This document shows positions 10,485 to 54,276 of a stretch of DNA of 64,000 nt, one piece after another (positions within the stretch are counted from its first letter, which is position 1; every line of letters begins with the position of its first letter). The notes beneath the pieces were generated by a model, which was given only the letters and a program-made list of their open reading frames with translations, did no database searches and was not told the origin of the DNA. The stretch comes from Chloroflexota bacterium (lineage in GTDB: Bacteria > Chloroflexota > UBA11872 > VXOZ01). Position numbers and translations under genes: made by a program. The stretch is taken from positions 1,984,001 to 2,048,000 of the forward strand of contig OZ219802.1 of the NCBI GenBank assembly GCA_964291655.2, written 5' to 3'.

Positions 10485-10707
10485 TGTAAGTGTTGAGTAA
10501 TTCGTTGACAGAATTCTCTCTCAAATTGGCAGTGTTGACAGATCATGTCATTCCGAGCGGAGCGAGGAATCTAGAGTCCCTGCTCAGCACTCTAGATTCC
10601 TCACTCCGCTACGCTTCGTTCGGAATGACATGTGTACTAGTCATGACTAACACTGCGAAAGGTTGCTTTTCTTCTCAAATCTGTCAACGAATTACCTGAC
10701 ATTTACA
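10485..10707. mobile_element. MITE, TGTAAGTG-ended family (copy 1)
   Basis: ~28-bp terminal inverted repeats TGTAAGTGTTGAGTAATTCGTTGACAGA / TCTGTCAACGAATTACCTGACATTTACA enclosing a GTCATTCCGAGCG...CGGAATGAC palindrome pair. Confidence 0.8.
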
Positions 10708-10844
10708 GGAATGACATGTACGGTCGACACAGTCCAGTGAGTAGACGCTTTTCTCAACGAATTACGCAACACATACCGGAATGACTTTGGCTGTCAGCGA
10801 ATTTCGCAACGCATACAGGAGAGACATTTGTCGGACGCCATGCG

Positions 10845-12278
10845 TTACACTCCCGCCAGTGCACGCGCCACTTGGATGAGCGCCTGCACCCGTTCAGGGG
10901 AGTCTGCCTCGGCGTAGATGCGCATGATCGGCTCCGTGCCGGAGAAGCGGACGCACACCCACGCGCCGTCGCGCAGCGTATAGTGAAACCCATCTTCTGT
11001 GCGGCGTGCGACGACTTCGCCATTCGCGATTTTCGTCGGCACGTGCGCTTGCATGCGCGCCGTGATGTTTTCCCGCTCCTCCTGCGGGAAGTCGAGGTCC
11101 AGGCGATCGTAGCAGTGGGGACCCACCAGACTGAACAGGTGTTCCACTAGATCCGTGGGCGCGCGGCCGGACTGCACCACGTAATCCAGCAGGAATAGCC
11201 CCGCCAAAATGCCGTCGCGTTCCGGCACATGGCCGCGAAAGGCGTAGCCGCCGCTTTCCTCGCCGCCCAGCAGCGCGTCAGTCTCCAGCATCTTCGGGGC
11301 CACGAATTTAAAGCCCACCGGCGTTTCGTGCACGGGCACGTTGAAGTGCTCGCCAAGGCGGTTGAGCATGGAACTGGACGTGAACGTCTTGACTATCGGT
11401 CCGCGCTGACCGCGCACTTCGAGCAGATAGAGCGCCAAAAGCGACATAACCGTAAGTTGATTCAGGAATTCACCTTTTTCATCACAAGCGCCGAGGCGGT
11501 CGGCATCGCCGTCGGTTGCGAGACCTAACCGCGCCCCCATTCTCGGTACCAGGCTGAAGAGGTCCTGCAGGTTTCCCGGTATCGGTTCCGGGTTGTGCAT
11601 GTTGGGGAACATGGGATTGCGTCTGTTATGGAGATCAAACACCCGCAGGGAGCCGCCTTGCAGGATGTTGCTGAACCAATTGCATCCGGCGCCATACATG
11701 GCGTCTACCACCAGCGTGCCGTCCCAAGCGCGCAGACCCTCGAGATCGAGCAGTTTACTTATGTGCGTCAGGTACGCCGGCGCGGGGTCAAACTGCTCGT
11801 GGAGGCCCTGACTCTGCGCTTCGGCAAGTGACAGCGAGCGCACGTCGCGGGGATGCAGCGTGCTCACGATCTCCTCAATTTCGGCCAGTTCCTCCGGCGG
11901 AGTTGCACCGCCGTACGCGGAACGTACCTTGTATCCCTGGTAGTCGAAGGGGTTGTGACTTGCCGTGAGGGTGATTCCGCCGCCGGCCCGGCGGTTGACG
12001 ATGGCGTGGGCGAAGACCGGCGTAGGCGTGGGCACATCGGCAAGAGCAACCGGAATGCCGTTGCCGACCAGCACCTCGGCTGCGGCCGCGGCAAACATCT
12101 CGGCATTGAACCGGGTATCGTAGGCTACGACCAAGCCGCGTTCCGCCGCTTCCGGTTGGGCCTTCAGCCAATGCTGCGCGACCGCCTGCGTAAGCAAACG
12201 CACGTTTTCGACGGTGTAGTCGTCGCCGATTACGGCGCGCCAACCGTCGGTACCAAATCTAATTGCTGATGAACCCAT
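10845..12278 (-). CDS. Phosphoglucomutase/phosphomannomutase
   Basis: FGTDGWR, TASHNP, DGDADR, GEESGG, RFSGTEP. Confidence 0.95.
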   Translation of the reverse strand: MGSSAIRFGTDGWRAVIGDDYTVENVRLLTQAVAQHWLKAQPEAAERGLVVAYDTRFNAEMFAAAAAEVLVGNGIPVALADVPTPTPVFAHAIVNRRAGGGITLTASHNPFDYQGYKVRSAYGGATPPEELAEIEEIVSTLHPRDVRSLSLAEAQSQGLHEQFDPAPAYLTHISKLLDLEGLRAWDGTLVVDAMYGAGCNWFSNILQGGSLRVFDLHNRRNPMFPNMHNPEPIPGNLQDLFSLVPRMGARLGLATDGDADRLGACDEKGEFLNQLTVMSLLALYLLEVRGQRGPIVKTFTSSSMLNRLGEHFNVPVHETPVGFKFVAPKMLETDALLGGEESGGYAFRGHVPERDGILAGLFLLDYVVQSGRAPTDLVEHLFSLVGPHCYDRLDLDFPQEERENITARMQAHVPTKIANGEVVARRTEDGFHYTLRDGAWVCVRFSGTEPIMRIYAEADSPERVQALIQVARALAGV

Positions 12279-12338
12279 ATTGGTTTCAGTGCTCCTTAAC
12301 AGAGATGGCAGGAAGTGTGCTCATTGTATTCGTGTGTT

Positions 12339-13310
12339 TTATTGGAATTTGGAATCAGCCCGTACTTGGAATCGCCAATAGTCCAGGGTATCCAGTAAGG
12401 TCTGTTCCAGAGGAATAGTTGTACGCCAACCGGTCTGCTCCTGGAATGCGCGCGGGTCTGCTTGGAGAATCGGCAGGTCGCCGGGTCGGAAGAGCGTCGG
12501 ATCGGTCTCCACCCGCACCTCTACCTGCGTGAGGCCCAACATGACCTGCAGCATTTCGTCAATCGAACGTGCGGCGCCGGAGCCAATGGTGTAAACGGCG
12601 CCTGGAGTCCCTTTTTCCAGCGCCAGCCAATAGGCGCGAGCCATGTCACGCACGTCGGTGAAGTCGCGCTTAGCGCTCATGTTACCCACTGTTAGGTTTG
12701 GTGGGCGCAGTCCCGCCTCCATCTCCGCCAGTTCCCGCGCAAAACGGGCGATGACGAAGTCCGGCGCTTGGCGGGGTCCGATGTGGTTGAACGGACGCAC
12801 CCGCACGCTGGACAACCCGTGACTCTGCCAATATTGCAACGCCAGCATGTCCTGCCCGACCTTACTCACCGCGTACGGATCAGCGGGGCGCAAGGGCGCT
12901 GTTTCGCTGACGGGGAGGTCTTTCTCCTCCACCATACCGTAGACGTTGCTCGAACTCACCACAAGGAGTCGCGCCGCCGGCACGTGCCGCTGCATCGCCA
13001 GGATGATGTGCAGTTGTCCGAGTATGTTGGTGGTGAGGGTCGCGGCTGGGTCTTGCCACGCGGTCGGCACGTGCGCCTGGGCAGCGAGATGGAAGATCCT
13101 GTCCGGCCGGATAGCGGCAAGCGCGGCTTGCATGCCGTCTTCGTCAACGATGTTTGCACTGTGGAGTTGAATGCGATCGCCCAGGTGCACGAGATGCGGA
13201 TGCGGCCCCGGCGTGTGCGCCAAGCCCCATACGTCTGCTCCCTGCGCCACGCACACGTCCGCGAGGTGGCTGCCCGCAAAGCCGGTGATGCCGGTAATGA
13301 GTACGCGCAT
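12339..13310 (-). CDS. GDP-mannose 4,6-dehydratase / GDP-6-deoxy-mannose reductase-like extended SDR
   Basis: ITGITGFAGSHL, HLAAQ, YAVSK, RPFNHIGP, RDFTDVRD; start at MRVLITG. Confidence 0.9.
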   Translation of the reverse strand: MRVLITGITGFAGSHLADVCVAQGADVWGLAHTPGPHPHLVHLGDRIQLHSANIVDEDGMQAALAAIRPDRIFHLAAQAHVPTAWQDPAATLTTNILGQLHIILAMQRHVPAARLLVVSSSNVYGMVEEKDLPVSETAPLRPADPYAVSKVGQDMLALQYWQSHGLSSVRVRPFNHIGPRQAPDFVIARFARELAEMEAGLRPPNLTVGNMSAKRDFTDVRDMARAYWLALEKGTPGAVYTIGSGAARSIDEMLQVMLGLTQVEVRVETDPTLFRPGDLPILQADPRAFQEQTGWRTTIPLEQTLLDTLDYWRFQVRADSKFQ

Positions 13311-13440
13311 GGGGGCGACTTCTCGCATCACGTGAAGGGGTGGATTCCTGTGGCGATTATACGCGGCAATTCTTGTCCGGGGCAACCGCGCGGAGGGAGG
13401 TGAAAGCGCGCGGTGCACGTGCCGCCGCAGGCTGGCACGG

Positions 13441-13595
13441 CGTAGGTTGCAAACCTACGCTACTGGAGGGGTAGGGGCAACCACCGGGGGTTGCCCGCTG
13501 CGCATAGGTCAGAATGAACAACCGCCGCGTTCTGGATTGGCGCAGGTTGCAAACCTACGCTACCGGAGGGGTAGGGGCAACCCTTGTGGTTGCCC
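13441..13595. repeat. Two ~100-bp-period units of paired GTAG-type palindromes
   Basis: CG(T/C)AGGTTGCAAACCTACGCTAC.GGAGGGGTAGGGGCAACC...GGTTGCCC at 13441 and 13541. Confidence 0.85.
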
Positions 13596-13633
13596 TCTTC
13601 TTACCGATAGGTCAACACGTCGCTTCCAGGACT

Positions 13634-15478
13634 TTACAGCTTCTGCGCCTGGTAGAGATCGTGGAAGAGTCCCGGCTGCGCGAGCAACGTTTGGGGAGCG
13701 CCCTCTTGCACCAGTATCCCTTCATCGAGCACGAGAATCCTGTCGGCATGCATCACGGTTACCAGCCGGTGTGCCACGACAAGGGTGGTCCGGCCGCGCC
13801 GTGCCGTCTCCAAGGCGGTGCGTACCTTCTGGTCGGTGAGCGCGTCCAGTGCGGACGTCGCCTCGTCCAACAAGAGGATGCGGGGCTGTTCCAGGATTGC
13901 CCGGCAAAGCGCCAGGCGCTGACGCTCGCCGCCGGAAAGCGCCAGACCCCGCTCGCCGACCTGCGTGTCGTAGCCATCCGGCAGCGACTCGACAAATTCG
14001 TGAAGCTGCGCGGCTTTGGCGGCGGCAATGACGTGTTCTCGCGGTACGTCGCGGGACGGGTACACGAGGTTCGCATAGATGCTGTCGTTCCAAAGGAAAA
14101 CGTCTTGCGGCACGAGGCCGATCATCCCGCGCAGGTGGGAGAGCGGCAGTTCCTCAACAGGCGTACCGTCTACCAGGATCGCTCCGGTACGCGGTTCGTA
14201 GAAGCGCAGCAGGAGATCGATGACCGTACTCTTGCCACCCCCGCTCGGACCCACGACGCCGATGAATTCACCAGGTTCAACGCGAAATGACACAGCTTCC
14301 AAACCGAAACCGTCCCGGCCGTAATCGAAAGAGACATCTGAAAATTTGATGGTGGCGCCGCTTGGACAAGCTGTGTTTTGTGCGGTCACCGCATCATGTG
14401 AATCCGTTCGTGCTGAGCCCCTCGACAAGCTCAGCACAGGCCCTGTCGAAGCACGAACGGATTCGTCATTCTCGCTCGGGAGACTGAACAGCGAGTCGAT
14501 CCGCCCGGCAGCAGCTTTGGCCTGGCCGGTGCTGATGTGGCCGTCCAAGATTGCTTCCAATGCGATATAGGCGCGCGGCACGTAGATGATGAAGGCCACC
14601 AAGCCGCCAATGCTCAGCCGACCGTTAATCACCTCGTATGCGCCGTAGCCGTACACGAGTCCGACCACGACGTTTTGGATAAGGTTCAGCGGCAGCGTCA
14701 TTACCAGATTATGGAAGGTAATAGTCTTTGCTTTGATGCGCCAGTCGGCCTTGATCCACTCCAGCCACCGCGCTCTCTCATGCGGCTCCGCGGCGTGGGC
14801 GCGGATGGTGCGCATGCCGGGAATCACGTCTTGCAGGTAGCTCATGGCATGTTCTCTGCTCTGGTGCAGTTCCCCGTCCATTGCTTCCGCATAGTGCTGC
14901 ATCCGTCGTGCAAAGAGGTAGGAAAGCGGAAAGGCGATCAGGCTGACCAGCAACAAGTGGCCGTTGAGAAAGAACATGACGCCCAGCGTTCCTAGCAAGA
15001 GCACAGCGTTGGTGAACATGGGGAGCAACTCATTGCTCACGTACACCTCGCCAATTTCGCCACAGACTTTGGTTATGGTGCGAATGATGCGCCCACTTGC
15101 GATTCGCTCCAGGTCTTGCAATTTCACGTACAAAGTATGGTTGAAGAGCGTCCGCCGGAGTGACTGCGAGACCGCTTCGCCAATGTTGGCGCGCAGATAG
15201 TTTTGCACCGCCCCCAGCGCCATTGTGATCAGCGGAAAAGCAATAATGCCAATTAGCAACGGCACGATCAAGGCAACATTGCCTGTGGGAATCGCCTCGT
15301 CGATGAGGCGCTTGACGAGCAATGGAGTGACGAGACTAACGCTAGTACTCACGATAACCAGCGCGACAATGCCCGCAATCAGGTGCCAATGGGCGCGCAG
15401 TTGCCGCGTGACAACCTGGTAGGTCGAATGGTTTCGCTTGATGGTATACCCTCCTGAAATTGGTTTGCTACTCCGCGT
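13634..15478 (-). CDS. ABC exporter (fused TMD + NBD, MsbA-like); start codon uncertain
   Basis: TM region, GPSGGGKST, LSGGERQR, LLLDEATS; no ATG near the N-terminus, in-frame ACG (15478) and ATC (15442) follow strong SD motifs. Confidence 0.88.
   Translation of the reverse strand, partial: TRSSKPISGGYTIKRNHSTYQVVTRQLRAHWHLIAGIVALVIVSTSVSLVTPLLVKRLIDEAIPTGNVALIVPLLIGIIAFPLITMALGAVQNYLRANIGEAVSQSLRRTLFNHTLYVKLQDLERIASGRIIRTITKVCGEIGEVYVSNELLPMFTNAVLLLGTLGVMFFLNGHLLLVSLIAFPLSYLFARRMQHYAEAMDGELHQSREHAMSYLQDVIPGMRTIRAHAAEPHERARWLEWIKADWRIKAKTITFHNLVMTLPLNLIQNVVVGLVYGYGAYEVINGRLSIGGLVAFIIYVPRAYIALEAILDGHISTGQAKAAAGRIDSLFSLPSENDESVRASTGPVLSLSRGSARTDSHDAVTAQNTACPSGATIKFSDVSFDYGRDGFGLEAVSFRVEPGEFIGVVGPSGGGKSTVIDLLLRFYEPRTGAILVDGTPVEELPLSHLRGMIGLVPQDVFLWNDSIYANLVYPSRDVPREHVIAAAKAAQLHEFVESLPDGYDTQVGERGLALSGGERQRLALCRAILEQPRILLLDEATSALDALTDQKVRTALETARRGRTTLVVAHRLVTVMHADRILVLDEGILVQEGAPQTLLAQPGLFHDLYQAQKL
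14400..14464. repeat. REP-like palindrome in frame within the ABC exporter linker
   Basis: GAATCCGTTCGTGCT...AGCACGAACGGATTC with internal TCGACAAGCTCAG; same family as intergenic copy at ~785-820. Confidence 0.85.
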
Positions 15479-15764
15479 TAGTAAGCCCTCCTTTCGAGGA
15501 ACAACAGCGGTGGCATCGGACCGGCGACGCCGTCCGCTGCGATAAGGGTGGGTCAAGAGGCTCTGGTTGTTTCCTCATTTGGGAGGAGCGACTGCTCCTA
15601 AAGTGACGCAGCTTTACTCTCCTTTGGATGGAGCTGCTGCCCGTCGACTTTCCCCCTTCTGCCTGCGGACGTGACCGTTGTCCACTGACGTGAAGCACAC
15701 TGTTTGTCTTTGGGGCGAAGCGGCTGCTCGTCGCCAAGACCATCTTTCACCCTCTCCCTTGATG

Positions 15765-16293
15765 GAGACCTTTGCATAACCATCGCCACAGCGCGGATGT
15801 CCCCTCTCCCTCGACGGGAGAGGGCTAGGGTGAGGGTGAATCTCCTGAAGTCTCTCCATTTGCACACCGATTCTGCCCTGATACGTCTTGACACTGCCCA
15901 GCGTAAAGGGCCATCGTAGCAAAAAGACCCCCTCACCCCAACCCTCTCCCCTGTACAGACCGGGGACATAGGTAACAGTTGTTCGGGGACATGGGTTACA
16001 CATTTTACTGATTGACACCTACGAGAGCATTGGGTTGGTCCGGGTTTGATAAGAGACTGGCGACACAGTGCACTCACTTTCAGCCTGTCAGCTTGTGCCA
16101 GAGAAACAAACTGTGTGCATAAGGATATTGAGCGGATCTAACTTTCAAGGCAAGGACATCGCATACTACGAAAATCCCCTCGTTCTATGGTGTAACCTAT
16201 GTGCCCGAACATGTGTAACCCATGTACCCGGTCTATACACTCCCCCAGGAGAGGGAGTGCTCCTGCTTGAAAGTGGGGTTATGCAAAGGTCTC
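15765..16293. mobile_element. GAGACC-ended MITE containing a nested IS481-derived MITE
   Basis: TIR GAGACCTTTGCATAAC / GTTATGCAAAGGTCTC; flanking direct repeat CTTGATG (15758-15764, 16294-16300). Confidence 0.85.
15952..16239. mobile_element. 288-bp non-autonomous IS481 derivative (MITE, copy 1)
   Basis: TGT...ACA ends; right 51 bp identical to reverse complement of IS481 left end at 40147; TSD CTCCCC. Confidence 0.92.
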
Positions 16294-16490
16294 CTTGATG
16301 GGAGAGGGCGGGGGTGAGGGTGATGCGTGACGTGACAAACCCCCGTCCGGCCATTTCAGAATGCGGATTACCTAGCCCTGCGCATGGGTGCGGGGCACAA
16401 AACAGCCAGTATACGCGGCAGGCGAAATTCGTAAAGAATCCGTCCAGAAAGCCCCGTTTTGGCGGCACATGTGCGTGTGTACCGTCAAGG

Positions 16491-16499
16491 TGGTATACT
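16491..16499 (+). promoter_or_regulatory. Extended -10 promoter TGnTATACT
   Basis: TGGTATACT upstream of a short structured region and terminator. Confidence 0.5.
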
Positions 16500-16554
16500 G
16501 TTAACACGATTGAGACAAGCTGCGGTGTGTTGCAATCACTGACATGACAAAACA

Positions 16555-16590
16555 AAACACCCGGGCGATTGACCCGGGTGTTTATTCATT
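16555..16590. terminator. Bidirectional intrinsic terminator
   Basis: 11-bp stem AAACACCCGGG / CCCGGGTGTTT with A-rich and T-rich flanks. Confidence 0.8.
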
Positions 16591-16626
16591 TAACGACAGA
16601 GAGAGTGGCTGGTACTTACTTTTCCA

Positions 16627-16986
16627 TCAAGAACCGGACCCTACCGGCACCTCTTCTTGCATAACCAGATACACGGCGTCGGCCAACACGCGGTCTCGCA
16701 TGTGGGGCTTGATGCTGCGGAAGGTCGTGACGTCCACTCTACGCCCAAAGAGGTCTTCTAAGAAAAAGCAGAGGTCCATGTAGCCTACCAGCGTCAGAAA
16801 CGATTCGGCCAACTCTACCAGCACATCCACGTCACTCTGCGGAGTGGCCTCATCTCGTGCCACCGACCCATAGAGCGCGATCTTCTCTACGCCGAGACGC
16901 TTGAGTTGCGCGCGGTTTGCTGCGAGCATGCGCAGGGCGTGTGAACACGTTAGCGTTCTTGGCGACCTCTTTTTGGAGGTCATCAC
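16627..16986 (-). CDS. Minimal nucleotidyltransferase (MNT, MntA-like antitoxin), no adjacent HEPN partner
   Basis: LYGSVARDEATPQSDVDVLVE, LEDLFGRRVDV. Confidence 0.88.
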   Translation of the reverse strand: MMTSKKRSPRTLTCSHALRMLAANRAQLKRLGVEKIALYGSVARDEATPQSDVDVLVELAESFLTLVGYMDLCFFLEDLFGRRVDVTTFRSIKPHMRDRVLADAVYLVMQEEVPVGSGS

Positions 16987-17136
16987 TTACCTTCCCACAG
17001 CGTAGTAGAGACCAAACCCATTCCGCAGAGTACGTAACCGCCCTTTTCTTCCTGGCAGTTTATACTCCTGCGTTTGTCATCCTACTCAGGATAGTGTAGT
17101 AATCATACTTGAAGGATCGGAAAATCAAGCATCACA

Positions 17137-17433: not shown

Positions 17434-17462
17434 GATAGCAGCAAAGAGGAGGGCACTATCAC

Positions 17463-17762: not shown

Positions 17763-17771
17763 GCCGCGGTC

Positions 17772-21248: not shown

Positions 21249-21337
21249 CTACGCTGTTTCCTGCATCAATGCGAGGTTCCCAATGCACGTCGCAATAGCT
21301 AATCGGTATTGAGGGCGGACCGCAGGAGTTCTTGTGT

Positions 21338-21468
21338 GTGATTCCGAGCGCCTCACTTGTCACACCGAGCGCATCACTAGTCATTTCGAGCGCCTCACTT
21401 GTCACTCCAAGCGCCTCATTGGTCACTTCGAGCGCCCTATTTGTCATTTCGAGCGCAGCGAGAAATCT
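21338..21468. repeat. 21-bp tandem repeat (5 units) ending in a GTCATTTCGAGCGCAGCGAGAAATCT palindrome arm
   Basis: Units at 21338, 21359, 21380, 21401, 21422, then the full arm at 21443. Confidence 0.88.
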
Positions 21469-21633
21469 AAGAACTCCCGGCCTCAACCCAGCGATTTTGC
21501 ATTCCACGGGGCAGAAAGGCAAGGGGGCATTCGATTATAGATGATGTACAGCTTGAGTGCCACTTCCGAGTCTTCTTGCGATGTTAGTAGATATAGACGT
21601 GATAACTTGGCCGAGCTGCTTAATTGTCATTCC

Positions 21634-21874
21634 TGTAAGTGTTGAGTAATTAGTTGACAGAATTCCCTTTCCATTGTGAGGAGTTGACGCTGCATGTCAT
21701 TCCGAGCGCAGCGAGGAATCTAGAATCAATGTCGAACATGGTCCATACGGCTCAGTACTTTAGATTCCTCACTCCGCTGCGCTCCGTTCGGAATGACATG
21801 CATGCAGGCAGGCACAGAGTTCTGCTCCCAAGTTTCTTCTACCAAATCTGTCAACGAATTACCCGACATCTAGA
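21634..21874. mobile_element. MITE, TGTAAGTG-ended family (copy 2)
   Basis: Same TIRs; TSD ATTCC at 21629-21633 and 21875-21879. Confidence 0.82.
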
Positions 21875-22065
21875 ATTCCGAGCTCAGCGTCGAACCCGGT
21901 TCGCGGGATTTAAGAGTTCCTGCACTCTAGATTCTTCGTTGCTGCGCTCCTCAGAATGACAGATGAGGTGCGGCTTTGAGCGTGAGTGCGTGCGATGTGT
22001 CGCATTTCCGTACGGTGTAAGCCCAATTCTGCTAATGCTGGATTTCTCGTTACCAGGTCGACAAA

Positions 22066-23050: not shown

Positions 23051-23392
23051 CCCAGGGAGAGGGAACCGGAAAACGTAGCGCGGGGGCGTGTCCCCCGCTC
23101 CGGTAGCTAGTTGCCCCGCACAGGAAGATGGATTCCCGCTTTCGCGGGAATGACGAATCAAAACTCCGACTTACCCGACAAATTCCATTGTCACCCAATG
23201 GCGTTGGCTCCGTTCGTGGCCCAGGGGCGTGTCCCCCGCTCTTGTTCACCTTCAGCAAGCACCATCTCAAGTGTCTTAAGGACTCCCCTCACCCTAACCC
23301 TCTCCCCAAGGAGAGGGGATCAGAGGCCATGGCGTGGGGGCGTGTCCCCCGCTCTGGTGCATCTTCAGCAATCACCGGCACGAAATTCGCAT

Positions 23393-27057: not shown

Positions 27058-27409
27058 TGGCAGCCGCCGCTAGTGCGACCATTTTCATGGTACTAAGTGG
27101 CTTTGGCTCGCGTCAACAGACAAGGTGGTGCTTTATGCTCCACCAGCCAAACGAGAGCGATATGAGGTTTGGTCCGTCATTAGTAAGTTGAAGAAGGCGG
27201 GCACATGAGCGGATACAAGAAGGAAACGCGAGGGCAAGTTTTCCGTCATTTCCGCGATAAGCCTGCCCCGTACTTGATACGGGGCGGGAATCCATCTTCC
27301 TCTGGCTCATTGCCGTCCACTCGGTTGCAGGCCTAGGACACACTTCCCTCACGCCGTCCCCTGGACTCCGGCTTTCGCCGGAGTGACGGTGCGGTTGGTC
27401 CGCCGCAAT

Positions 27410-27665
27410 TGTAGATGTCAGGTAATTCGTTGACAGATTTGAGAACAAAAGCAGCTGAACGCAGTACTCTACATGAACAGTACACATGTCATTCCGAGCG
27501 GAGCGTCGAACCCTGTTCGCGGAATCTAGGGCCCATGCAACGTGTCGCCCAATAGGCTCAACATCTTAGATTCCTCTCTTCGCTGCGCTCCGTTCGGAAT
27601 GACATGATCTGTCAACACTGCCAATTTGGGAGAGAATTCTGTCAACGAATTACTCAACACTTACA
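27410..27665. mobile_element. MITE, TGTAAGTG-ended family (copy 3, inverted)
   Basis: Same TIRs; TSD GCAAT at 27405-27409 and 27666-27670. Confidence 0.83.
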
Positions 27666-28140
27666 GCAATGACCAATGGGTAGAGGCACGACCTGTGGTG
27701 CCCCTCACCGCGTCCGGCCCTTCCGGTAGCGCAGGTTTGCAACCTGCGTCCGCCGGCGTGCTGACCCCTCTTGTCGATTTACGTGACAAGTATCAGGCAT
27801 GAACTTGGCGCCACGCCAAGCTGGGTCCGATCACGACACGCGCAAATCTGCGACCGTCATCGCTGCGACCCTGCGCCGGGTTCAGGACAGGCAAGGGCTT
27901 CGCGCAGCACGCAGCACGAACGGACTTCTCGGTCTGTGGAGTCTTGGAGATGCCGCCCCCTAAGCAAGACGATACCCCGTTGGCCGGCCATGCCTCTGAG
28001 TCGGATTCATGGTTAAATGTGGGATGCGTTCGCCCGCCTTCGCTACAATAGGGACGGAAGGCGGGCCGCAAGACATGCCGTGGATCAGACGACGCTGAAA
28101 TGCGGAGCAAGCGAAGGGTCACATTGGAGGGGAATCAACC

Positions 28141-31147: not shown

Positions 31148-31549
31148 CACGGGGAGAGAGATTACTCCTGCTACCCGGCGTGTATATTATGGCTTCCTAG
31201 ACTCGGAATCCAATGTCTTTGCGCAACATGGGAAGTTTGCAGCGCGGGAGACAAGCCACAATCGTGTCGCATCAAAGTAGCGCGGGGGCTTGTCCCCCGC
31301 CAGAGCAAAGGGAACAGGCATGGAAAGGATTGACCTTACAGGAACGCAGGTTGCAAACATGTCCTGAGCCTGTCGAAGGGCCTGCGCTACCGGGGATAGG
31401 AGGCACGGTGCTCGGCGCCACTATGTTTGATGCGACAACATTGGGGACAAGCCCCCGCGCTACGGGAATTTAAGAGTGCCTACCCTTTTGGTCCAGGGTG
31501 CAACTGCCAAGCTTTCGAATGGTTCGGCTCGTTGGGCTGAAACTATTCG

Positions 31550-36022: not shown

Positions 36023-36305
36023 GTAACGCAGGGGGCTTGTCCCCCGCCACTTGGCGCACACCATTTGGGTCGCGCAAGTCTTTGGCAAATGCGTTCACCC
36101 AGACAAGCTGACTTCGCATTCCAGTGTCACCCGAACCCAATCCCGGCTCTCGTAGCGCGGGGGCTTGTCCCCCGCCACTTGGCGCACACCATTTGGGTCG
36201 CGCAAGGTCTTGGCGAATGTGTTCACCCAGACATGCTGACTGGGCATTCACCAGTGTCACCCGAACCCAATCCCGGCTCTCGTAATGCGGGGGCTTATCA
36301 TCCGC
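36023..36305. repeat. ~130-bp tandem repeat (2+ copies) each starting with GTAGCGCGGGGGCTTGTCCCCCGC
   Basis: Units at 36023, 36152, 36282. Confidence 0.88.
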
Positions 36306-36485
36306 CTCTTGGCGTCAAATTCAAGCGCCCCTTTGGAAGAAACATGCCTTGCGCTCGCGGCATTGGTTCATCTTGCGACCCTTCGGCAAAGCCTGTACTT
36401 AGCCTATCGCAGCGTTCTTGCCGCCGTTCGTGTTGCGTTCTTACCCCCGTTCGCGCTGAGCCTGTCGAAGCGCTGTTCCAGAGAT

Positions 36486-40146: not shown

Positions 40147-41411
40147 TGTATAGACCGGGTACATGGGTTACACATGTTCGGGCACATAGGTTACACCTTA
40201 AGGCATGGAGATTCTTACAGATGGAGGAGCGCCATGCCTTGGAAGGAGAGTACGGTTGTGTCTGAACGCAAGGAGTTCATTGCACTGGCACTGATGGAAG
40301 GGGCCAACATCAGCGAGCTGTGTCGCCGTCTGGAGATCAGTCGCAAGACGGCGTACAAGACGCTGGAGCGGTATGCGAAAGCTGGCGAAGACGGTTTGCA
40401 CGACCGGTCGCGGCGGCCGCACACGTGTCCGCACCGCACGCGCCCGGCGCTGGAGGAGCGCATCATCGCCTTGCGCCTGGCGCATCCGAAGAAAGGCGCA
40501 CACGTGCTGCGCCGGATGCTGCAGGACCAGGGGGTCACCGACGTGCCGGCCAAGAGCACCATCAATGCCATTCTCAAACGCCATGGGCTCATCGATCCAG
40601 CCCAGAGCGCCAAGCACACGCCCCATGTGCGCTTCGAACGACCCCAGCCCAACGAGCTGTGGCAGATGGACTTCAAGGGACATTTCGTCATGCAGCAGAA
40701 CCGCTGTCATCCTCTCACCCTCCTAGACGATCACTCCCGCTTCAACCTCGGGTTACAGGCCTGTGCCAACGAGCGGGGAGAGACGGTCCAAGACCGCCTC
40801 ACCGCTGTCTTTCGCCGCTACGGCTTGCCCCAGGCCATGCTCATGGACAACGGCTCTCCCTGGGGTAACGACAGTGCCCAGCCCTTCACGCCCCTCACCG
40901 TCTGGCTCATGCAGCTGGGCATCAACGTCCTGCACAGCCGACCCTACCATCCCCAGACACTCGGCAAGCTGGAACGCTTCCACCGCTCCCTCAAGAGCGA
41001 ACTGCTGGCAGGGACCACCTTTACCGACCTGGACCATTGCCAGCGCGCCTTTGACACCTGGCGCCACTTCTACAACTTGGAACGCCCACACCATGCCCTC
41101 GATCTCGACACTCCCATTACCAGATACACGCCTAGTCCTCGCCCTTTCCCAGAGACCTTGCCTGCCCTCGCCTACGCTCCCGACGACCGCGTACGCAGCG
41201 TCGATGTCTCCGGCCGCATCTCCTTCCAAGGCAGACGGCTCCGTGTGGGCAGGGCCTTCACGCACAAGCAAGTCGCCCTGCGACCCACCCGAACGGACGG
41301 TGTCTGGGACGTGTACTTCTCGATCCAAAGAGTAAAAACCATAGACCTCAGAGCACAAAATGTGTAACCTATCTACCCGAACATCTGTTACCTATGTCCC
41401 CGGTCTGTACA
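40147..41411 (+). mobile_element. IS481-family insertion sequence
   Basis: TGT...ACA ends with ~50-bp imperfect TIR; TSD CTCCT. Confidence 0.93.
40234..41367 (+). CDS. IS481-family transposase
   Basis: MPWKE, ISRKT.YK, LWQMDFKG, DDHSR, DNGSPW, HPQTLGKLERFH; SD GGAGG. Confidence 0.95.
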   Translation: MPWKESTVVSERKEFIALALMEGANISELCRRLEISRKTAYKTLERYAKAGEDGLHDRSRRPHTCPHRTRPALEERIIALRLAHPKKGAHVLRRMLQDQGVTDVPAKSTINAILKRHGLIDPAQSAKHTPHVRFERPQPNELWQMDFKGHFVMQQNRCHPLTLLDDHSRFNLGLQACANERGETVQDRLTAVFRRYGLPQAMLMDNGSPWGNDSAQPFTPLTVWLMQLGINVLHSRPYHPQTLGKLERFHRSLKSELLAGTTFTDLDHCQRAFDTWRHFYNLERPHHALDLDTPITRYTPSPRPFPETLPALAYAPDDRVRSVDVSGRISFQGRRLRVGRAFTHKQVALRPTRTDGVWDVYFSIQRVKTIDLRAQNV

Positions 41412-44676: not shown

Positions 44677-44744
44677 ATAAATCAGGCAGCAAGCAGGTAT
44701 ACGCTCATACCTGGATTCAGTATAGCAGTGAATACCCCTCTTTG

Positions 44745-47961: not shown

Positions 47962-48322
47962 AGACTTTCTTTTCTCCTGATTCTCAGCGCCCATTGCGTG
48001 TGGGTGTGTCGCACACCAGGCGCGCACGGCGCGACCAGCGCCCAGCATTTGGTGATTTCACCATGCCGCCCCTGCGAGGGCAGTCGTATCCCCGCGCGCT
48101 TCTCTTGTTTCCCTATCTTAGCCTAATCATGTTCCAGGTACGAGACTTGGCTTGGTGGGGCGAGACAGGCGGTTGAGGACGCAATGCTGATAGCTGCGCA
48201 GATTGACTCTTTCCGTTCAAATACGGCAACGCAACATCAGCGACGTGTTCCATTCGTATTCTTCCTCAATTGGGCACGGAAGCGGGGGGCAAGCCCCCGC
48301 GCTACGAAGAAGATGTCATTCC

Positions 48323-48564
48323 TGTAAGTGTTGAGTAATTCGTTGACAGAATTGAGAACAAAAGCAACCTTTCGCAGTGTTAGACATGACTAGTACACAT
48401 GTCATTCCGAACGAAGCGCAGCGAAGAGAGGAATCTAGTGTGCTGAAGCCGTTAAAGTGCGTTGAGCAGGGACCCTAGATTCCTCGCTCCGCTCGGAATG
48501 ACATGCACCGTCAACTCCTCAGAATGGAAAGCGGATTCTGTCAGCGATTTACCTGACACTTACA
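48323..48564. mobile_element. MITE, TGTAAGTG-ended family (copy 4)
   Basis: Same TIRs; flanks GTCATTCC / ATTTCCGAGCG. Confidence 0.8.
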
Positions 48565-48792
48565 ATTTCCGAGCGGAGCGTCGAACAGGGTTCGCGGAAT
48601 CTAAGGTGCTTCCCCCACAAGTTTCGCTGCTATTTGGGAACGGTATGCACTACTCGTGCCGTTTGTGATGAATGGTCAAGGGGCAAAGGGCAATAAGGCG
48701 TGAGAGGTTGAGCGCAAGGCTGATTAAGGTCTACGATAGGAATGAGTTCTCTCATTACGTCTCGATGATAATTTGCAAAGAGGCACACTGTC

Positions 48793-49512
48793 ATGGCAAC
48801 AAGAATAGGCTTCATCACCGACGTGCATGGCAATGCGCCGGCGCTGCGGGCCGTGCTGGCGGAACTGGCGCGGGAGGACGACCTGTCCCACATCTACGGC
48901 GCAGGCGACCTGATCGGCATTGGACCGTACACCAATGAGGCGCTGGAACTGCTGTTCGGAATGCCTAGTTTCTCAAGTGTCGCGGGTAATCACGAAGACT
49001 GTATCCTGGCGCTGTTGGCCGGTGAAGTGCCCAACAGTCCGCCGGGAATGGCAGAACATCACCAGTGGGTTGCAAATGAACTTGACCGCCGCTTCGTGCC
49101 GCAGTTGACAGCACTGCCCTGCATGCTGTCGCCGCAACATGGCGACCTGGAGCTCTTCATCGCTCACTACCACCTGGATGCGGCGCAGAAGCTGCTGCCG
49201 ATAGACCCGGAGCCCACGTTGGCAAAGCTCGACGCGCACTATGGCGAACATCCTGCCGCCGCGGTCCTCACCGGCCACCACCACGACGGCCACTTCTTTG
49301 CAAGGCCGGGGCGCACATTCTTGAATCCTGGCGCACTCGGTTGCGGTACACAACCCGTGGCGCGGTACGCCGTGCTAACACTCGGAGAAGAAGGCATTGG
49401 CGTCGAACGGCGCGAGGTGGCGTACGATTGGGAGTGTTTTCTCCATGCGTACCGTGAGCGTAACGTGCCGGGTGGAGATTTTATCTTAGAACGCGTATTC
49501 GGACAGGCGTGA
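48793..49512 (+). CDS. Metallophosphoesterase (YfcE-like)
   Basis: DVHGN, GDLIG.GP, GNHE, GHHH, NPGALG. Confidence 0.92.
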   Translation: MATRIGFITDVHGNAPALRAVLAELAREDDLSHIYGAGDLIGIGPYTNEALELLFGMPSFSSVAGNHEDCILALLAGEVPNSPPGMAEHHQWVANELDRRFVPQLTALPCMLSPQHGDLELFIAHYHLDAAQKLLPIDPEPTLAKLDAHYGEHPAAAVLTGHHHDGHFFARPGRTFLNPGALGCGTQPVARYAVLTLGEEGIGVERREVAYDWECFLHAYRERNVPGGDFILERVFGQA

Positions 49513-49759
49513 GAGTGCGAAGCGACCCTTTTCGTGGAATGCTGAGCAGTCGGACTTTGAACTAAGCAGTGAAGGTGGATTCCGCGCCCCCGTGCGGTGC
49601 GAACTTGCGCGGGAATCACCATGGCCTTCCGAGAGTCCACATTAGGGATAGAAACTGCGGTCGCCTTTTTGACCGTCATTCCGGCGAAAGCCGGAATCCA
49701 GGGCGCGGGCGGTGAAGATGGATTCCGCCGCTCGAGCGGAGGCGAGCTTGCGCGGGAAT

Positions 49760-50177
49760 TGTAAGTGTCAGGTGATTGGTTGACAGATTTGGTAGGCATT
49801 GTCGGTGGTACCAACGTCATGTTTGACCACATCACATGTCATTCCGAACGAAGCGCAGCGCAGAGAGGAATCTAAAGTGCTAAGCCAAACAGACACGCTC
49901 GACGTGAACACTAGATTCCGCGAACTCTGTTCGACACTGCGCTCGGAATGACATTAGTTGTCAACGCAATCTAGAAGTCAGGAGAATCTGTCAACGAATT
50001 AGTCAGCATTTACAAATCCGAACGAAGCGAAGTGAAGTAAGGAGTCTAAGATGTTGCGCCTTTTACGCGACATGTAGCATGGGCCCTAGATTCCTCGCTG
50101 CGCTTGGAATGACATGAACTGTCAATACATCAAGTGGAAGGGGAAGGGTCTTAGCAACGAATTGCTCAATATTTACA
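49760..50177. mobile_element. MITE, TGTAAGTG-ended family, composite with one left end and two right ends (50014, 50177)
   Basis: Outer flanks GGAAT / GGAGT within a GCGGGAAT-GACGG palindrome arm; inner right end followed by AATCCGAACG. Confidence 0.7.
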
Positions 50178-50301
50178 GGAGTGACGGACTACCGCACGAA
50201 ATGACAGGATGGATACCATTCTGCTTTGACGGAGTGTGATGAAAGCAAGAGTACACCGCTGCCGCAGCAACGTGAAATCGCAGTAGACGAAAGGACCGCA
50301 T

Positions 50302-51717
50302 ATGGCAAATGAAGAAACCCGCACCGAGCGGGATTCGATGGGTGAAATGGAAGTGCCCGCCGATGCGTATTACGGCGCCTCGACGCAGCGGGCGGTGCTG
50401 AATTTTCCCATCAGCGACTTGCGCTTTCCGCGCCGGTTCATCCAGGCGCTCGGCTTGATCAAGCAGAAGGCGGCGGAGACGAATCAAGAGCTTGGTCTAC
50501 TGGACGAAAGACCGGCGGGCGCCATCATGCAGGCGGCGCAGGAAGTGGCGGACGGCGCGCTGGACGGCGAATTCGTGCTCGATATCTTCCAGACCGGCTC
50601 CGGCACGTCCACCAACATGAACGCCAATGAGGTCATCGCCAACCGTGCGGTGGAGATTCTGGGAGAAGAGCGCGGCTCCCGCACGATCCATCCGAACGAC
50701 CACGTGAACATCTGCCAGTCGTCCAACGACGTGATTCCGGCGGCGATGCATCTGTCGGCGCTCCTGGGCATCCGCGAAGACCTGATCCCGGCATTGGCAC
50801 ACCTGCAACGCGCCCTAGTAGCCAAATCTGAAGAATTCATGCCAATCATCAAGACCGGCCGCACGCACTTGCAGGACGCCACGCCCATCCGCCTGGGGCA
50901 GGAGTTCCAGGGCTACGCCGGGCAGATCGAGCGGGCGATCAAGCACCTGCGCCACGCCGAGGACTGGTTGGGCGAAATTGCGCTCGGCGGCACGGCGGTG
51001 GGCACCGGCATCAACGCGCACCCCGAGTTTGCGCGCCGCGTCTGCGCCAAGCTGCGCGCCGCGACGGGCTACCATATCCGCGAGACTGAGAACCACTTCC
51101 AGGCCCAGAGCGCCATCGATACGTTCGTGATGACGAGCGGCATGCTCAATACCGTGGCCGTGGCGTTGCTCAAGATCGCCAACGACATCCGCTGGCTGGG
51201 ATCGGGTCCGCGCGCCGGGCTCGGCGAACTGCTGCTGCCGGAGGTGCAGCCGGGGAGCAGCATCATGCCCGGCAAGGTGAATCCGGTCATTCCCGAATCG
51301 GTGATCCAGGTCTGCGCGCAGGCCATGGGCAACCACCACGTGGTGACCCTGTCCGGCCAGTGGGGGTATTTCGAGCTCAATACCATGCTGCCGGTGGCGA
51401 CGTATAACGTCTTGCGACCCATTGGCCTGCTCAGCAAGGCGGCGGCGAACTTTGCCGACCAGTGCGTAAGCGGAATCCAGGCAACGGAACACGGCCCCGC
51501 CACCGTGGAGCGCGGCCTCATGACGGCCACGGCCTTGGCCCCACTCGTGGGCTACGACCAGGCTGCCGTGATCGCCAAGACTGCGTACGCCGAGAATAAG
51601 ACGGTTCGCGAAGTCGCCAAAGAGCTCACCGACCTCACCGACGCGCAACTTGACGAGGCGCTAGATCCGGCCAAGATGGTGCAACCGGGATTGAGCGGCA
51701 TCGCGGCGGGGGGATAG
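50302..51717 (+). CDS. fumC: Class II fumarate hydratase
   Basis: RTERDSMG, QTGSGTSTNMNANEV, HPNDHVN, KTGRTHLQDATP, GSSIMPGKVNP. Confidence 0.96.
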   Translation: MANEETRTERDSMGEMEVPADAYYGASTQRAVLNFPISDLRFPRRFIQALGLIKQKAAETNQELGLLDERPAGAIMQAAQEVADGALDGEFVLDIFQTGSGTSTNMNANEVIANRAVEILGEERGSRTIHPNDHVNICQSSNDVIPAAMHLSALLGIREDLIPALAHLQRALVAKSEEFMPIIKTGRTHLQDATPIRLGQEFQGYAGQIERAIKHLRHAEDWLGEIALGGTAVGTGINAHPEFARRVCAKLRAATGYHIRETENHFQAQSAIDTFVMTSGMLNTVAVALLKIANDIRWLGSGPRAGLGELLLPEVQPGSSIMPGKVNPVIPESVIQVCAQAMGNHHVVTLSGQWGYFELNTMLPVATYNVLRPIGLLSKAAANFADQCVSGIQATEHGPATVERGLMTATALAPLVGYDQAAVIAKTAYAENKTVREVAKELTDLTDAQLDEALDPAKMVQPGLSGIAAGG

Positions 51718-51983
51718 TATAGAGACACGCAGACCCTAGCCACGTTGCAAAGACATGGGGGTGAGTTGCAGATAGCGGTTGTACAAACCTGGCCCAACGA
51801 TGTCTGCGTGATTGGGTGCTCAAGGCTGCTAACATCAAGTTGTGCTTAGCCGCACAGGCCCCTACAAGAACTTGGTCATCCAAGCACTCGACTACCTTCG
51901 AGACGAGATTCGCACTTACTCGATACGTTTCTCAGCAATACGGAGGAGATGCTCGCCGACGGTGACTTCATGCTCTATGGGTC

Positions 51984-52013
51984 TTGCCGAGTGTACTGTG
52001 ATACCGTACACTC
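51984..52013 (+). promoter_or_regulatory. sigma70 promoter with overlapping operator palindrome for higBA
   Basis: TTGCCG-N17-TACACT; inverted repeat GAGTGTAC-N9-GTACACTC; ATG 7 nt after the -10. Confidence 0.72.
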
Positions 52014-52019
52014 AACTGT

Positions 52020-52310
52020 ATGGTCATTCGCTCCATCCGTCACAGGGGATTGCGTCGGCTAATCGAGGACGACAACCCTCGCTTCTTGGAAACTCAATTG
52101 GCCGGTCGAATTAGGAGGATCCTAACCGTGCTGCTCCTGGCCGAAGACATGAACGGCTTCTTATCCGATGCGCCTTCCGGTTGGCGCGTTCATCGGCTCT
52201 CGGGTGAACGGCAGGAGGAGTGGAGCGTTTCCGTATCGGGCAACTACCGTATGACATTCAAGGAACGGAATGGCCATATCGACCGCTTGAACCTGGAGGA
52301 CTATCACTGA
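52020..52310 (+). CDS. higB: HigB family toxin
   Basis: IRSIRHRGL.RL, WRVHRLSG.R...WSVSVSGNYRMTF, LEDYH. Confidence 0.92.
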   Translation: MVIRSIRHRGLRRLIEDDNPRFLETQLAGRIRRILTVLLLAEDMNGFLSDAPSGWRVHRLSGERQEEWSVSVSGNYRMTFKERNGHIDRLNLEDYH

Positions 52311-52615
52311 TGACTGCCGACGGTATCAAGGTAAGAATGACCCCCTCGCATCCAGGGGAGTTCATCCGTGCGGAGATCATCGAGCTGTTGGGTCTGAACG
52401 TGGCCAAGACCGCCGGCATCCTGGGTGTCCGGCGCGCCACGCTCTCAGACTTGCTGAACGGCAACGCGGCGCTGTCACCCGAAATGGCGCTGCGGATCGA
52501 GAAGGCGTTTGGCGTAAACATGGACATGCTGCTGCGAATGCAGGCCTGGCATGATGCCGCGCAGATGCGCGCCCGGGCAGATGAGATTAGAGTTGAGCGC
52601 TATCAGCCCGCTTGA
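52310..52615 (+). CDS. higA: HigA family antitoxin
   Basis: PSHPGEFIR.EI, LSPEMALRIEKAFG; TGATG coupling with higB. Confidence 0.92.
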   Translation: MTADGIKVRMTPSHPGEFIRAEIIELLGLNVAKTAGILGVRRATLSDLLNGNAALSPEMALRIEKAFGVNMDMLLRMQAWHDAAQMRARADEIRVERYQPA

Positions 52616-52732
52616 GCCGGCTGCTGACTCGACTGTCGCGCAAAGTGTTGTATGAGTCCTGACTGGGAAGAGGTCGGCTGGAATCGTCGCAAGCCGTAAC
52701 TCCCCAGTCATAGAAACAGGAGATGCCCCACC

Positions 52733-53890
52733 ATGGCCTATTACGACGATTGGCCCGTTCTCGGCATAGAGGACGTGAATCCGCGGCAGCAGCGTTTGTA
52801 CGAGCAGTACGAGGACTACCTGGTCCACTACATCAAGCAACTCTACGACGCACGGGAACGCTACTGGAACCGGGACTTCTCCGACCTGGATGCCTACGTG
52901 CATTCGGTGGAGCCCAACCGGCAGCATTTCTTGGATAGCCTGGGCGGTTGGCCGTGGGAGCGGCACGACATGCACCTGCGCATCGAGCCGCTGGCAACCA
53001 CCGCGGACTTTCGCGTGGAGCGCGTGTACTATCGCGTGTTCGAAGGCGTGGAAAGCGATGCGCTCCTCCTGACCCCGCTTGGCAAAGGGCCGTTTCCCGG
53101 TGTGGTCTTGCAGATCGGTATCTACGGCGTACCGGAAGTCGCCTGCGGCTTCACCGCTGACGAGCATGCCGGCAAGGACAGCACCTACCACCGCATTGGC
53201 GGGCGGCTGGCGCGGCACGGCTATACCGTGCTCGCCACGCGCATGGTGACGGGATTCGAGCCGGACACGCTGGCTGGACGGTTTGCCCCGAAGCTGCAGG
53301 AGCTCAAGAGTGCGCAACCCCACGCCCGCATGTACCTCAACCGCCTCTGCCGCACTATCGGCATGGACCTTTTTGGCGTCGAGATGTTTGCGCTCTCGCG
53401 CGGCGTGGACCTGCTGGAGAGCCTGCCGCAAGTGAATAGCGACCGCATCGGCTTCTACGGCAAGTCGCAGGGCGGGCAGTCGGGGCTTTGGCTCGGCGCA
53501 TTGGATACCCGCCTGCAGGCCGTGGTCAGCACCGCATGGTTCAACGAGCGCTACCAGAAGCAGGTGATCCCGTCCGAGCACTACCGCCCGTTCGCTCTCA
53601 CCGCGGAGGAAGACAAGATCTACCCCCACCTGCACGAGTTTGCCGACAGCGACATCGCCTCGCTGATCTGTCCGCGCGCGTTCATGGTGGAGGAAGGCAA
53701 GCACGACGGCGCGGTGTACTGGAAGTTGGCCGAGCAGGCCATTGCCGAGGTCAAGGCCATCTATGAACGGCTCGGCATCGGCGAGAGGTGCGAAATCCAC
53801 GTCCATGAGGGCGGCCATGAAGTCGAGCCGGAAGATGATACCGCACGGATGCACTCGGTGCAGTTCTTAGACCGCTGGTTGAAGAGCTAA
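52733..53890 (+). CDS. Alpha/beta hydrolase (dienelactone hydrolase / acetylxylan esterase-like)
   Basis: RIGFYGKSQGG nucleophile elbow, LICPRAF, GGHE. Confidence 0.85.
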   Translation: MAYYDDWPVLGIEDVNPRQQRLYEQYEDYLVHYIKQLYDARERYWNRDFSDLDAYVHSVEPNRQHFLDSLGGWPWERHDMHLRIEPLATTADFRVERVYYRVFEGVESDALLLTPLGKGPFPGVVLQIGIYGVPEVACGFTADEHAGKDSTYHRIGGRLARHGYTVLATRMVTGFEPDTLAGRFAPKLQELKSAQPHARMYLNRLCRTIGMDLFGVEMFALSRGVDLLESLPQVNSDRIGFYGKSQGGQSGLWLGALDTRLQAVVSTAWFNERYQKQVIPSEHYRPFALTAEEDKIYPHLHEFADSDIASLICPRAFMVEEGKHDGAVYWKLAEQAIAEVKAIYERLGIGERCEIHVHEGGHEVEPEDDTARMHSVQFLDRWLKS

Positions 53891-54022
53891 GCGGGCACGC
53901 TCTTGTTCAGCACAGATATAGCCAAATGGGCGAGCTGCAAGGGGCGGACAGCGTATTATTCCGAGAATGGGGCAATAGAGCACTCATCGCACGCAGAGCA
54001 GTCTGCCTAGTTTCGTCATTCC

Positions 54023-54276
54023 TGTAAGAGTTGAGTAATTCGTTGACAGTTTTGATAGGAATTGTCAGTGGTTTCACCGTCATGTACGACCACATCGCAT
54101 GTCATTCCGAGCGGAGTGCAGCGAAGAGTCGCTCGGAGCGCGGAATCTAAGATGTTGAGCCTATTGGGCGACACGTTGCATGGGCCCTAGATTCCTCGCT
54201 CCGCTCGGAATGACATGATCTGTCAACACTGCCAATTTGGGAGAGAATTCTGTCAACGAATTACTCAACACTTACA
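54023..54276. mobile_element. MITE, TGTAAGTG-ended family (copy 6)
   Basis: Same TIRs; TSD ATTCC at 54018-54022 and 54277-54281. Confidence 0.85.

Follow-up and report, generated by a model that had tools for sequence, protein, structure and literature searches.

Within a stretch of 64,000 nucleotides from a Chloroflexota bacterium (contig OZ219802.1, positions 1,984,001 to 2,048,000; the whole stretch is called the window below), six loci resemble MITEs, transposable elements of miniature size that have inverted repeats. The original prediction, made from the letters of the window, described them as loci of mostly about 220-255 bp at 10485, 21634, 27410, 48323, 49760 and 54023, in which terminal inverted repeats (TIRs) of about 28 bp with TGT...ACA ends surround a pair of palindromes called family-B. 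They are present at these positions and have this structure. The question that they raise is what kind of element produced them, what it inserts into, and whether it is the cause of the spread of the palindrome that it carries.

The most probable answer, to which we give a probability of roughly 0.88, is that a 1.06-kb insertion sequence (IS) of the IS481 type gave rise by deletion to the six loci, which are non-autonomous; it inserts at (C/T)GTC|ATTCC in repetitive extragenic palindromic (REP) hairpins and family-B units. What carries this reading is the anatomy of the copies, their duplications and target motif, a partner IS (how many copies it has and where they inserted) and empty sites in related genomes, all of which were observed. 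From these we infer that the IS mobilises the MITE in trans, that the target is recognised by its sequence rather than by the shape of the hairpin, and that the IS has been lost from the lineage of the host.

Anatomy and insertion sites of the MITE

All six loci are copies of one MITE family. They are 223-256 bp long, with inverted ends of about 28 bp reading TGT...ACA. The ends are of two types, A (TGTAAGTGTTGAGTAATTCGTTGACAGA) and B (TGTAAATGTCAGGTAATTCGTTGACAGA), which are identical at 24 of 28 positions.

The genome that was searched (code G000) consists of 3.47 Mb in two contigs, C1 and C2, with 59% G+C. A fuzzy search allowing up to 6 mismatches finds 135 MITE ends in it, and 56 plus/minus pairs of these face each other at a distance of no more than 600 bp. 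Pair lengths run from 200 to 511 bp (n=56) but mostly fall within 223-270 bp, with the majority at 241-268 bp, which is too short for a transposase gene; the usual make-up is one A end and one B end. Keeping one pair per right end leaves 53 innermost pairs. With at most 3 mismatches the end pattern has 71 matches in G000, whereas the same pattern read backwards has 0 in all 41 genomes searched. The repeat family is therefore real and numerous.

The layout of the element is constant. An end of 28-31 bases, starting TGTAAGTG or TGTAAATG, is followed by a variable module of 35-55 bases, the palindrome, a second variable module and the inverted end ...CACTTACA. The palindrome starts with (C)ATGTCATTCCGA(A/G)CG and finishes with CG(C/T)TCGGAATGACATG. 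Of the 56 pairs, the 45 that measure 220-275 bp and have one A and one B end were aligned, and in every copy the GTCATTCC...GGAATGAC palindrome is enclosed between the variable modules. The aligned copies form a mosaic: each internal module comes in three or four variants around the conserved palindrome, and one arm variant includes a second GTTGACAG. The whole MITE folds into a hairpin (z = -11.2). An Rfam scan of the window finds three tRNAs only, and the repeats match no known RNA family.

The copies in the window illustrate how the element inserts. The copy at 21634-21874 (241 bp) is flanked by an exact duplication of ATTCC (21629-21633 and 21875-21879), and it was inserted at the GTC|ATTCC that heads a free family-B unit (21875-21960, plus strand). 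Likewise, the copy at 54023-54276 (254 bp; 54018-54281 with flanks), which has an A-type end at both sides, is flanked by an exact ATTCC duplication. The family-B palindrome that it struck lies at 54277-54408 on the plus strand, and is followed by an arm of a second MITE-like family (...ATCCCTGTCAGC). The copy at 27410-27665 (256 bp, B end left; 27405-27670 with flanks) has an exact GCAAT duplication, and the other strand of its target reads GTCATTGC. These three duplications agree with the original prediction. In addition, the copy at 48323-48564 (242 bp; 48318-48569 with flanks) has entered half a family-B unit at its head, between flanks ATTCC and ATTTC that differ by one mismatch.

The other two copies lie in stacked arrays and have no duplication. 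The copy at 10485-10707 (223 bp), with its A end left and its B end right, has the flanks ATTCC and GGAAT. It is followed at 10708-10817 by stacked remnants of further copies: GGAATGACATG with a degenerate A arm ending at 10777, and a second degenerate end at 10817 (genome coordinates C2:1994777 and 1994817). The complete copy at 49760-50014 (255 bp, B end left) has the flanks GGAAT and AATCC. Next to it, at 50015-50187, is the remainder of a second copy, which consists of a family-B core without its GTC head and an A arm ending TTTACA at 50187. The entire array (49760-50187) is flanked by GGAAT and GGAGT. Its two right ends had been taken as consistent with self-insertion. They do fit a resident copy that was hit in its left head and then lost its left arm, but the flanks are not cleanly resolved. 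A few further stacked arrays exist in the genome, such as that at 1292872-1293382.

Across the genome, an exact 5-bp duplication is present at 32 of the 56 pairs and at 30 of the 53 innermost pairs. It is nearly always ATTCC after GTC, or the reverse complement GGAAT before GAC. Insertion at GTC|ATTCC, a motif that the element itself contains, had been proposed from the window and is seen across the genome; each copy holds the motif twice. The orientation of the MITE with respect to this asymmetric motif is even: it is the A end that faces the body of the REP in 19 copies, and the B end in 20.

The partner insertion sequence, its target and the mobility of the MITE

A search with the TIR for an autonomous element finds one in sister genomes, and its transposase is IS481-like. 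This partner IS is 1,060-1,061 bp long and has the same ends as the MITE; in the sister genome G006, paired end matches lie exactly 1,061 bp apart. It has one open reading frame (ORF) of 333-343 aa that encodes a DDE transposase, with no frameshifted two-ORF layout. In G006 the 333-aa ORF extends between the two ends, B-type to A-type, with its stop inside the right inverted repeat. Pfam reports rve_3, rve and rve_2 domains together with a weak helix-turn-helix match. The best NCBIfam model is the IS481 family (NF033577) with 206 bits, and the next, IS3, scores 82 bits, which is 124 lower. The left end of the IS corresponds to the B end of the MITE and the right end to the A end. The B arm of the MITE follows the left end of the IS up to ...GACAGATTTGGTAGAA.

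Every genome searched from the genus has the end pattern (16 of 16), and none of 24 from ten other genera of the class has it. The ends of the MITE are thus in all 16 sister genomes; the transposase is in 6 of them, with 15 matches in G001, 11 in G006, 5 in G003, and one each in G008, G015 and G010, the last of which is broken. Copies of 1,060-1,061 bp with MITE ends are found in G006, G001, G003, G008 and G015. Of the full-length copies, 23 were inspected (G006, 11; G001, 12), and 18 have an exact 5-bp duplication, mostly ATTCC or GGAAT beside GTC or GAC.

Related elements are found in more distant genomes as well. A scan of species-representative genomes kept as loci the best 80 of 181 stretches coding for related transposases. 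Among these best 80, 50 come from metagenome-assembled genomes named Dehalococcoidia, with transposases of 76-80% amino acid identity. Their elements are 1,046-1,048 bp long and all 50 have both ends (TGTAGATGTTAGGTAATTCG...). An exact 5-bp duplication is present in 43 of the 50, with GTC in front in 43 of 43. Taken together, the elements are 1,046-1,061 bp long, with TGTA...TACA ends and a 5-bp duplication, traits that agree with the IS481 family.

No cognate transposase had been seen in the window, and there is none there or elsewhere in G000. The partner transposase has 0 matches in this genome at E<=1e-40, and tblastn returns only IS481-like genes of 30-33% identity and one 70-aa fragment. 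DNA from the interior of the IS is absent from G000 apart from the stretch ~820-900, which matches 24 places and probably belongs to the other IS family of this genome. Two long-range pairs of ends were considered as autonomous copies and rejected. The pair at C2:2184117-2192095 has housekeeping genes inside, and the pair at C2:942901-945691 is a MITE split by an IS1182/IS5-type element and another MITE. At the latter locus (L002, C2:942000-946500) the interrupting IS1182/IS5-type element encodes a 540-aa transposase (DUF772 + DDE_Tnp_1_6), and the second MITE is nested.

The target can be defined more closely by pooling MITEs and IS copies from several genera, 126 elements altogether. Exact duplications are present in 91 of the 126, and in 61 of the 73 IS copies. 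GTC stands immediately 5' of the duplication at 89 of the 91 sites, and 70 of them restore GTCATTCC. At position -4, C is found in 44 cases and T in 42; the duplication is followed by G at 55 sites and by C at 30. The rare sites that depart from the motif (GTCATAAT, GTCCTTCT and GTCGTCCA) still have GTC, which points to recognition by sequence and not by hairpin shape.

This insertion motif forms the junction between tag and stem in CGTC-tagged REP hairpins, and likewise the head of the palindrome of family-B. On the two strands of G000 together there are 479 copies of GTCATTCC, against 93 expected from base composition. It is mainly followed by GGCG(A/C)A or CG(C/T)G(A/C)A in short hairpins, by GA(A/G)CG in family-B, or, at sites taken by a MITE, by TGTA. 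In G000 a search by structure found 180 hairpins composed of CGTC, a stem, a 4-base loop, the complement and CCA. The tag is CGTC in 165 and TGTC in 10, and the stem is ATTCCGGC in 81, ATTCCCGC in 42 and ACTCCGGC in 29. The loop has four bases in 177 hairpins (GAAA in 95), and the CCA tail is present in 167.

With no more than 2 mismatches, the CGTC-tagged hairpin CGTCATTCCSGCGAAAGCSGGAATCCA (27 bases; one example is at 49680-49710 of the window) is present in 53 of the 98 genomes of the class that were searched and in 8 of 20 genera, with up to ~690 copies per genome. The transposase occurs in 6 of the 98, all from the same genus, and 47 hairpin-positive genomes have no match to this query. 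The target repeat is therefore older and more widespread than the element. REP sequences are usually species-specific, and against this background the spread of one CGTC hairpin over 8 of 20 genera is unusual.

Free GTCATTCC sites, MITEs and the resident IS described below crowd one half of C2 (~1.2-2.4 Mb, window included). The densest 200-kb bin is that of the window, with 52 free GTCATTCC sites and 12 MITEs. The density of MITEs tracks that of free targets along the chromosome, and a Fisher test of C1 against C2 gives p = 0.20. Clustering of the MITEs was therefore rejected as an independent signal, since it merely mirrors the free targets. Just upstream of the 21634 copy, at 21337-21456, is a tandem array (family D16) of about six 21-base units with target-like heads (TGTCAYTCCGAGCGCCTCACT).

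Mobility can be assessed from sites that are empty in relatives, and such sites were found for two copies. The closest sampled relative is G008, with ~95% DNA identity. There the 48323 site is intact and unoccupied (...gatGTCATgcgGAGCGCAGCGTCGAACAGGGTTCGCGGAATCTAAG). The 27410 copy is absent from G002, where the duplicated 5-mer occurs once; among the four loci tried, the anchor search for the 27410 site has a match in G002 only. At least one MITE insertion is thus younger than the split from G008. At the 48323 position G013 has only an A arm and GTCATTCCGAGCG; we take this for what was left of a copy once its MITE core had recombined with the identical target unit. At its empty 48323 site, G008 has four tandem 43-base units (L044, G008:C17:7480-7820), made up of a GTAG-type hairpin and a GTCATGCGGAGC head.

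In the model that we propose, a MITE consists of the two tips of the IS (~30-40 bases each) and two variable modules around a palindromic dimer, family-B. The IS transposase would act in trans, and its 5-bp staggered cuts would give rise to the 5-bp duplication. The target would be chosen by the sequence (C/T)GTC|ATTCC, which comprises the unpaired CGTC/TGTC tag and the first five bases of the stem. Although this motif is asymmetric, the MITE inserts in both orientations. Copies do land in one another, yet most targets are older REP hairpins that are independent of the element. Finally, the autonomous IS would have been lost from G000, so that the MITE copies there are probably immobile now.

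Several observations weigh against this model. The evidence is wholly comparative. The IS481 score of 206 bits is below the curated cut-off of NCBI, 224. The arms of the MITE match the extant IS over ~30-40 bases at each tip only. An exact duplication is absent from 23 of the 53 innermost pairs, and ~7 of the 56 pairs have an ATTCC-type flank on one side and a GGAAT-type flank on the other. The empty 27410 site of G002 differs by a neighbouring 11-base indel. No clean empty site was found for the 21634, 49760 and 54023 copies; the intergenic DNA of relatives is shorter and different there, and these loci are uninformative on mobility for that reason. The G000 assembly, in 2 contigs, is 97.55% complete, and a single IS copy may have remained unassembled. 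The mixed flanks, including those of the 10485 copy, would be products of recombination between copies in opposite target orientations. They are also found in full-length IS copies, for example L014 and the pair L020/L023.

The spread of the palindrome and other explanations

Does the MITE explain the spread of family-B? Its units look like relatives of the REP hairpins that bear a TGTC tag and a bulged loop of larger size; two of them in inverted orientation make up the dimer. Profile searches find 108 family-B core loci in G000, distributed over 55 inside paired MITEs, 14 beside solo arms, 13 free targets abutting a MITE tip and 26 standing alone.

One alternative is that family-B is an independent REP dimer with its own route of spread, either REPIN-like (REPINs being REP doublets that form hairpins) or by recombination, and was merely captured by the MITE, which would then not be the cause of its spread. 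We consider this possible, although unlikely. The 26 standalone loci and the 13 free targets struck by MITEs speak for it, as does the wide occurrence of related CGTC hairpins in genomes without the IS. Most loci, by contrast, are tied to MITE ends, being inside paired MITEs or beside solo arms. Solo arms such as that in G013 show, moreover, that recombination can strip the arms from MITE-derived cores.

Also in favour of an independent dimer, the same family-B core is found in another MITE-like element, which has few copies and whose ends, GCTGACAGGGGTATG, are unrelated. The window contains it at 1987-2144 (158 bp, ends GCTGACAGGG...CCCCTGTCAGC), where it is flanked by the direct repeat CCCTCTGG within a CCCTCTCC-type palindrome. 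This family has 10 end matches in G000, with sister copies at C2:2285552-2285726 and near C1:637746. Three of the 8 standalone palindromes found by a stricter search, including that at 2024-2124 of the window, sit in this second element.

A further point in favour is one gene of G000 that resembles a REP-associated tyrosine transposase (RAYT). It is the single Y1_Tnp hit in the genome (30 bits, C2:2523481-2523714). Against this, no GTCATTCC lies within ~1.5 kb of it, and its locus of 3.2 kb has neither GTCATTCC nor GGAATGAC. A RAYT was rejected as the mobiliser of family-B, the lone weak hit not being flanked by the motif. Separate repeats with a GTAG head, which are the usual partners of RAYTs, also exist here and speak against a RAYT-driven family-B. 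Those with the head GTAGCGCGGGGGCTTGTCCCCCGC are found in the window at 7109-7134, 23075-23354, 31277-31302 and 36024-36307, and elsewhere.

The MITE is thus the main vehicle of family-B in G000, in the sense of the largest single one, but not the sole vehicle. The original prediction had regarded the MITE as a possible cause of the spread of the palindrome. This is supported by the 55 loci inside MITEs and limited by the 26 standalone loci and the second carrier. It had also described the element as self-seeding. Since the motif is present at both heads of the core, each copy adds two potential targets, and nesting does occur. However, only 96 of the 479 copies of GTCATTCC are inside the 53 paired MITEs, and the 4 of 53 MITEs that abut another arm are not above the ~20% expected under random site choice. 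Self-seeding is further weakened by the fact that the main targets are the 180 CGTC REP hairpins, which the MITE does not carry, and by the presence of such hairpins in 53 of 98 class genomes against 6 for the transposase. As an explanation of the spread it is supported in part only.

A bolder view is that the IS481-type clade is the missing transposase link of CGTC REPs, and that REP families are partly built or moved by a DDE rather than a tyrosine transposase. MITEs with a TGTC-tagged dimer as cargo would then disperse REP dimers. We find this doubtful, and the 47 hairpin-positive genomes without a transposase match to this query weaken it, although it may still hold for the dimeric family-B.

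It is a good deal less probable still that the MITEs of G000 remain mobile because a resident IS cross-mobilises them. All 28 rve-domain hits in G000 are 1.3-kb IS481-like elements with ends TGTATAGACCGGG... (TGTATAGACC-ended). One is in the window at 40147-41411 (1,265 bp, ends TGTATAGACCGGG...CCGGTCTGTACA, with a 397-aa ORF at 40174-41367), inside the hairpin CCCTCTCC-TTGG-GGAGAGGG and flanked by a CTCCT duplication of 5 bp. In favour of cross-mobilisation, the resident IS is abundant, is of the same family in the broad sense and duplicates 5 bp as well, and at least one MITE insertion postdates the split from G008. Its transposase, on the other hand, is only 30-33% identical to the cognate one, its ends have only TGTA in common with those of the MITE, and it targets another palindrome, CCCTCTCC...GGAGAGGG. 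Nearly all of the 28 hits sit in one palindrome family, CCCTCTCCC/GGGAGAGGG, and the resident IS thus represents a second IS481-type lineage that targets a second repeat family.

The shared ends might also be fixed parts of a larger, non-mobile mosaic repeat resembling a bacterial interspersed mosaic element. Several interleaved repeat families do crowd the region, and some loci differ from those of relatives by large blocks instead of clean insertions. This explanation is nevertheless hardly tenable in view of the exact duplications at 30 of 53 MITEs and 61 of 73 IS copies, the transposase-bearing element with the same ends, and the empty sites in relatives. A derivation from a Tn7-, Mu- or Tn402-type transposon, suggested by the TGT...ACA ends, the 5-bp duplication and the repeated subterminal GTTGACAG, was dropped as next to impossible once the rve search had returned only the 1.3-kb IS481-like elements with other ends (28 of 28) and the matching partner had been identified as a single-gene IS of 1.06 kb.

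Comparison with known systems

Members of the IS481 family are ~1 kb long, with TGT ends and a single DDE gene (ISfinder feature list). IS481 itself prefers NCTAGN and makes a 6-bp duplication. The partner IS resembles the family in its length of ~1 kb, its one rve-type DDE gene, its TGT...ACA ends, its short duplication and its best NCBIfam model. It differs in a score just under the cut-off and in its strict, asymmetric target of 8-9 bases at a REP hairpin.

Insertion sequences that target REPs are known. The accessible part of one report (PMC1525189) names IS1397, ISKpn1, ISPsy8, ISPa11, ISPpu9, ISPpu10 and ISRm22, and lists the families IS3, IS110, IS4, IS256 and IS5; IS481 is not mentioned in the paper. 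The elements described here are similar to these in that (nearly) every copy occupies one and the same position within an extragenic palindrome that is repeated, with GTC next to the duplication at 89 of 91 sites. Imperfect duplications are likewise put down there to recombination between copies, as proposed for ISRm22. Unlike them, as far as that text goes, the present elements insert at the tag-stem junction of CGTC REPs and have a numerous MITE derivative.

Bacterial MITEs, as outlined in the available sections of a review (PMC10969869), are small and non-coding, with inverted ends, duplications, many copies and a related autonomous IS, and the present family agrees with this. It departs from the MITEs of those sections in that its cargo is a dimer of its own target repeat; neither IS481 nor nested copies are mentioned in the review. 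A MITE that carries its own target offers a natural case for studying how a DDE transposase reads an asymmetric site of 8-9 bases. It also provides a natural case for asking how an element with its own landing pad affects the spread of a repeat. The MITEs of this genus show, in addition, that such elements can outlive their IS across a genus.

The family-B core can be compared with the REPIN. According to the portions of the two papers that were available (PMC3116915, PMC3337134), both consist of two inverted REP-like units that form a long hairpin. The elements described here differ in their DDE-type inverted ends and 5-bp duplications, and in that the lone RAYT-like gene is not flanked by the motif.

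CGTC-tagged REPs are defined, in the accessible text of a 2013 survey (PMC3733652), by a CGTC or TGTC tag, a stem of 8-9 bp starting A-T, a loop of 4-5 bases and a CCA tail. The target hairpins of G000 fit this definition in tag, stem, loop and tail. That text reports such REPs from five phyla, with Chloroflexi not among them, and no transposase genes associated with them. Here the host is a member of the Chloroflexota, and the hairpins are where a clade of transposases specifically lands. CGTC-type REPs are thereby extended to this phylum, and the clade that reads their tag-stem junction has conserved its specificity over several genera. The elements explain much of the repeat load in these genomes, and probably many assembly breaks.

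Literature searches found no IS481-type REP-targeting element, no IS481-derived MITE and no MITEs in these Chloroflexota, although supplementary tables may list more. REP-targeting IS and MITEs are both known. New, as far as these searches show, are an IS481-type pair of IS and MITE whose specificity for the tag-stem junction of CGTC REPs is conserved over several genera, and a MITE that has a dimer of its own target repeat as cargo.

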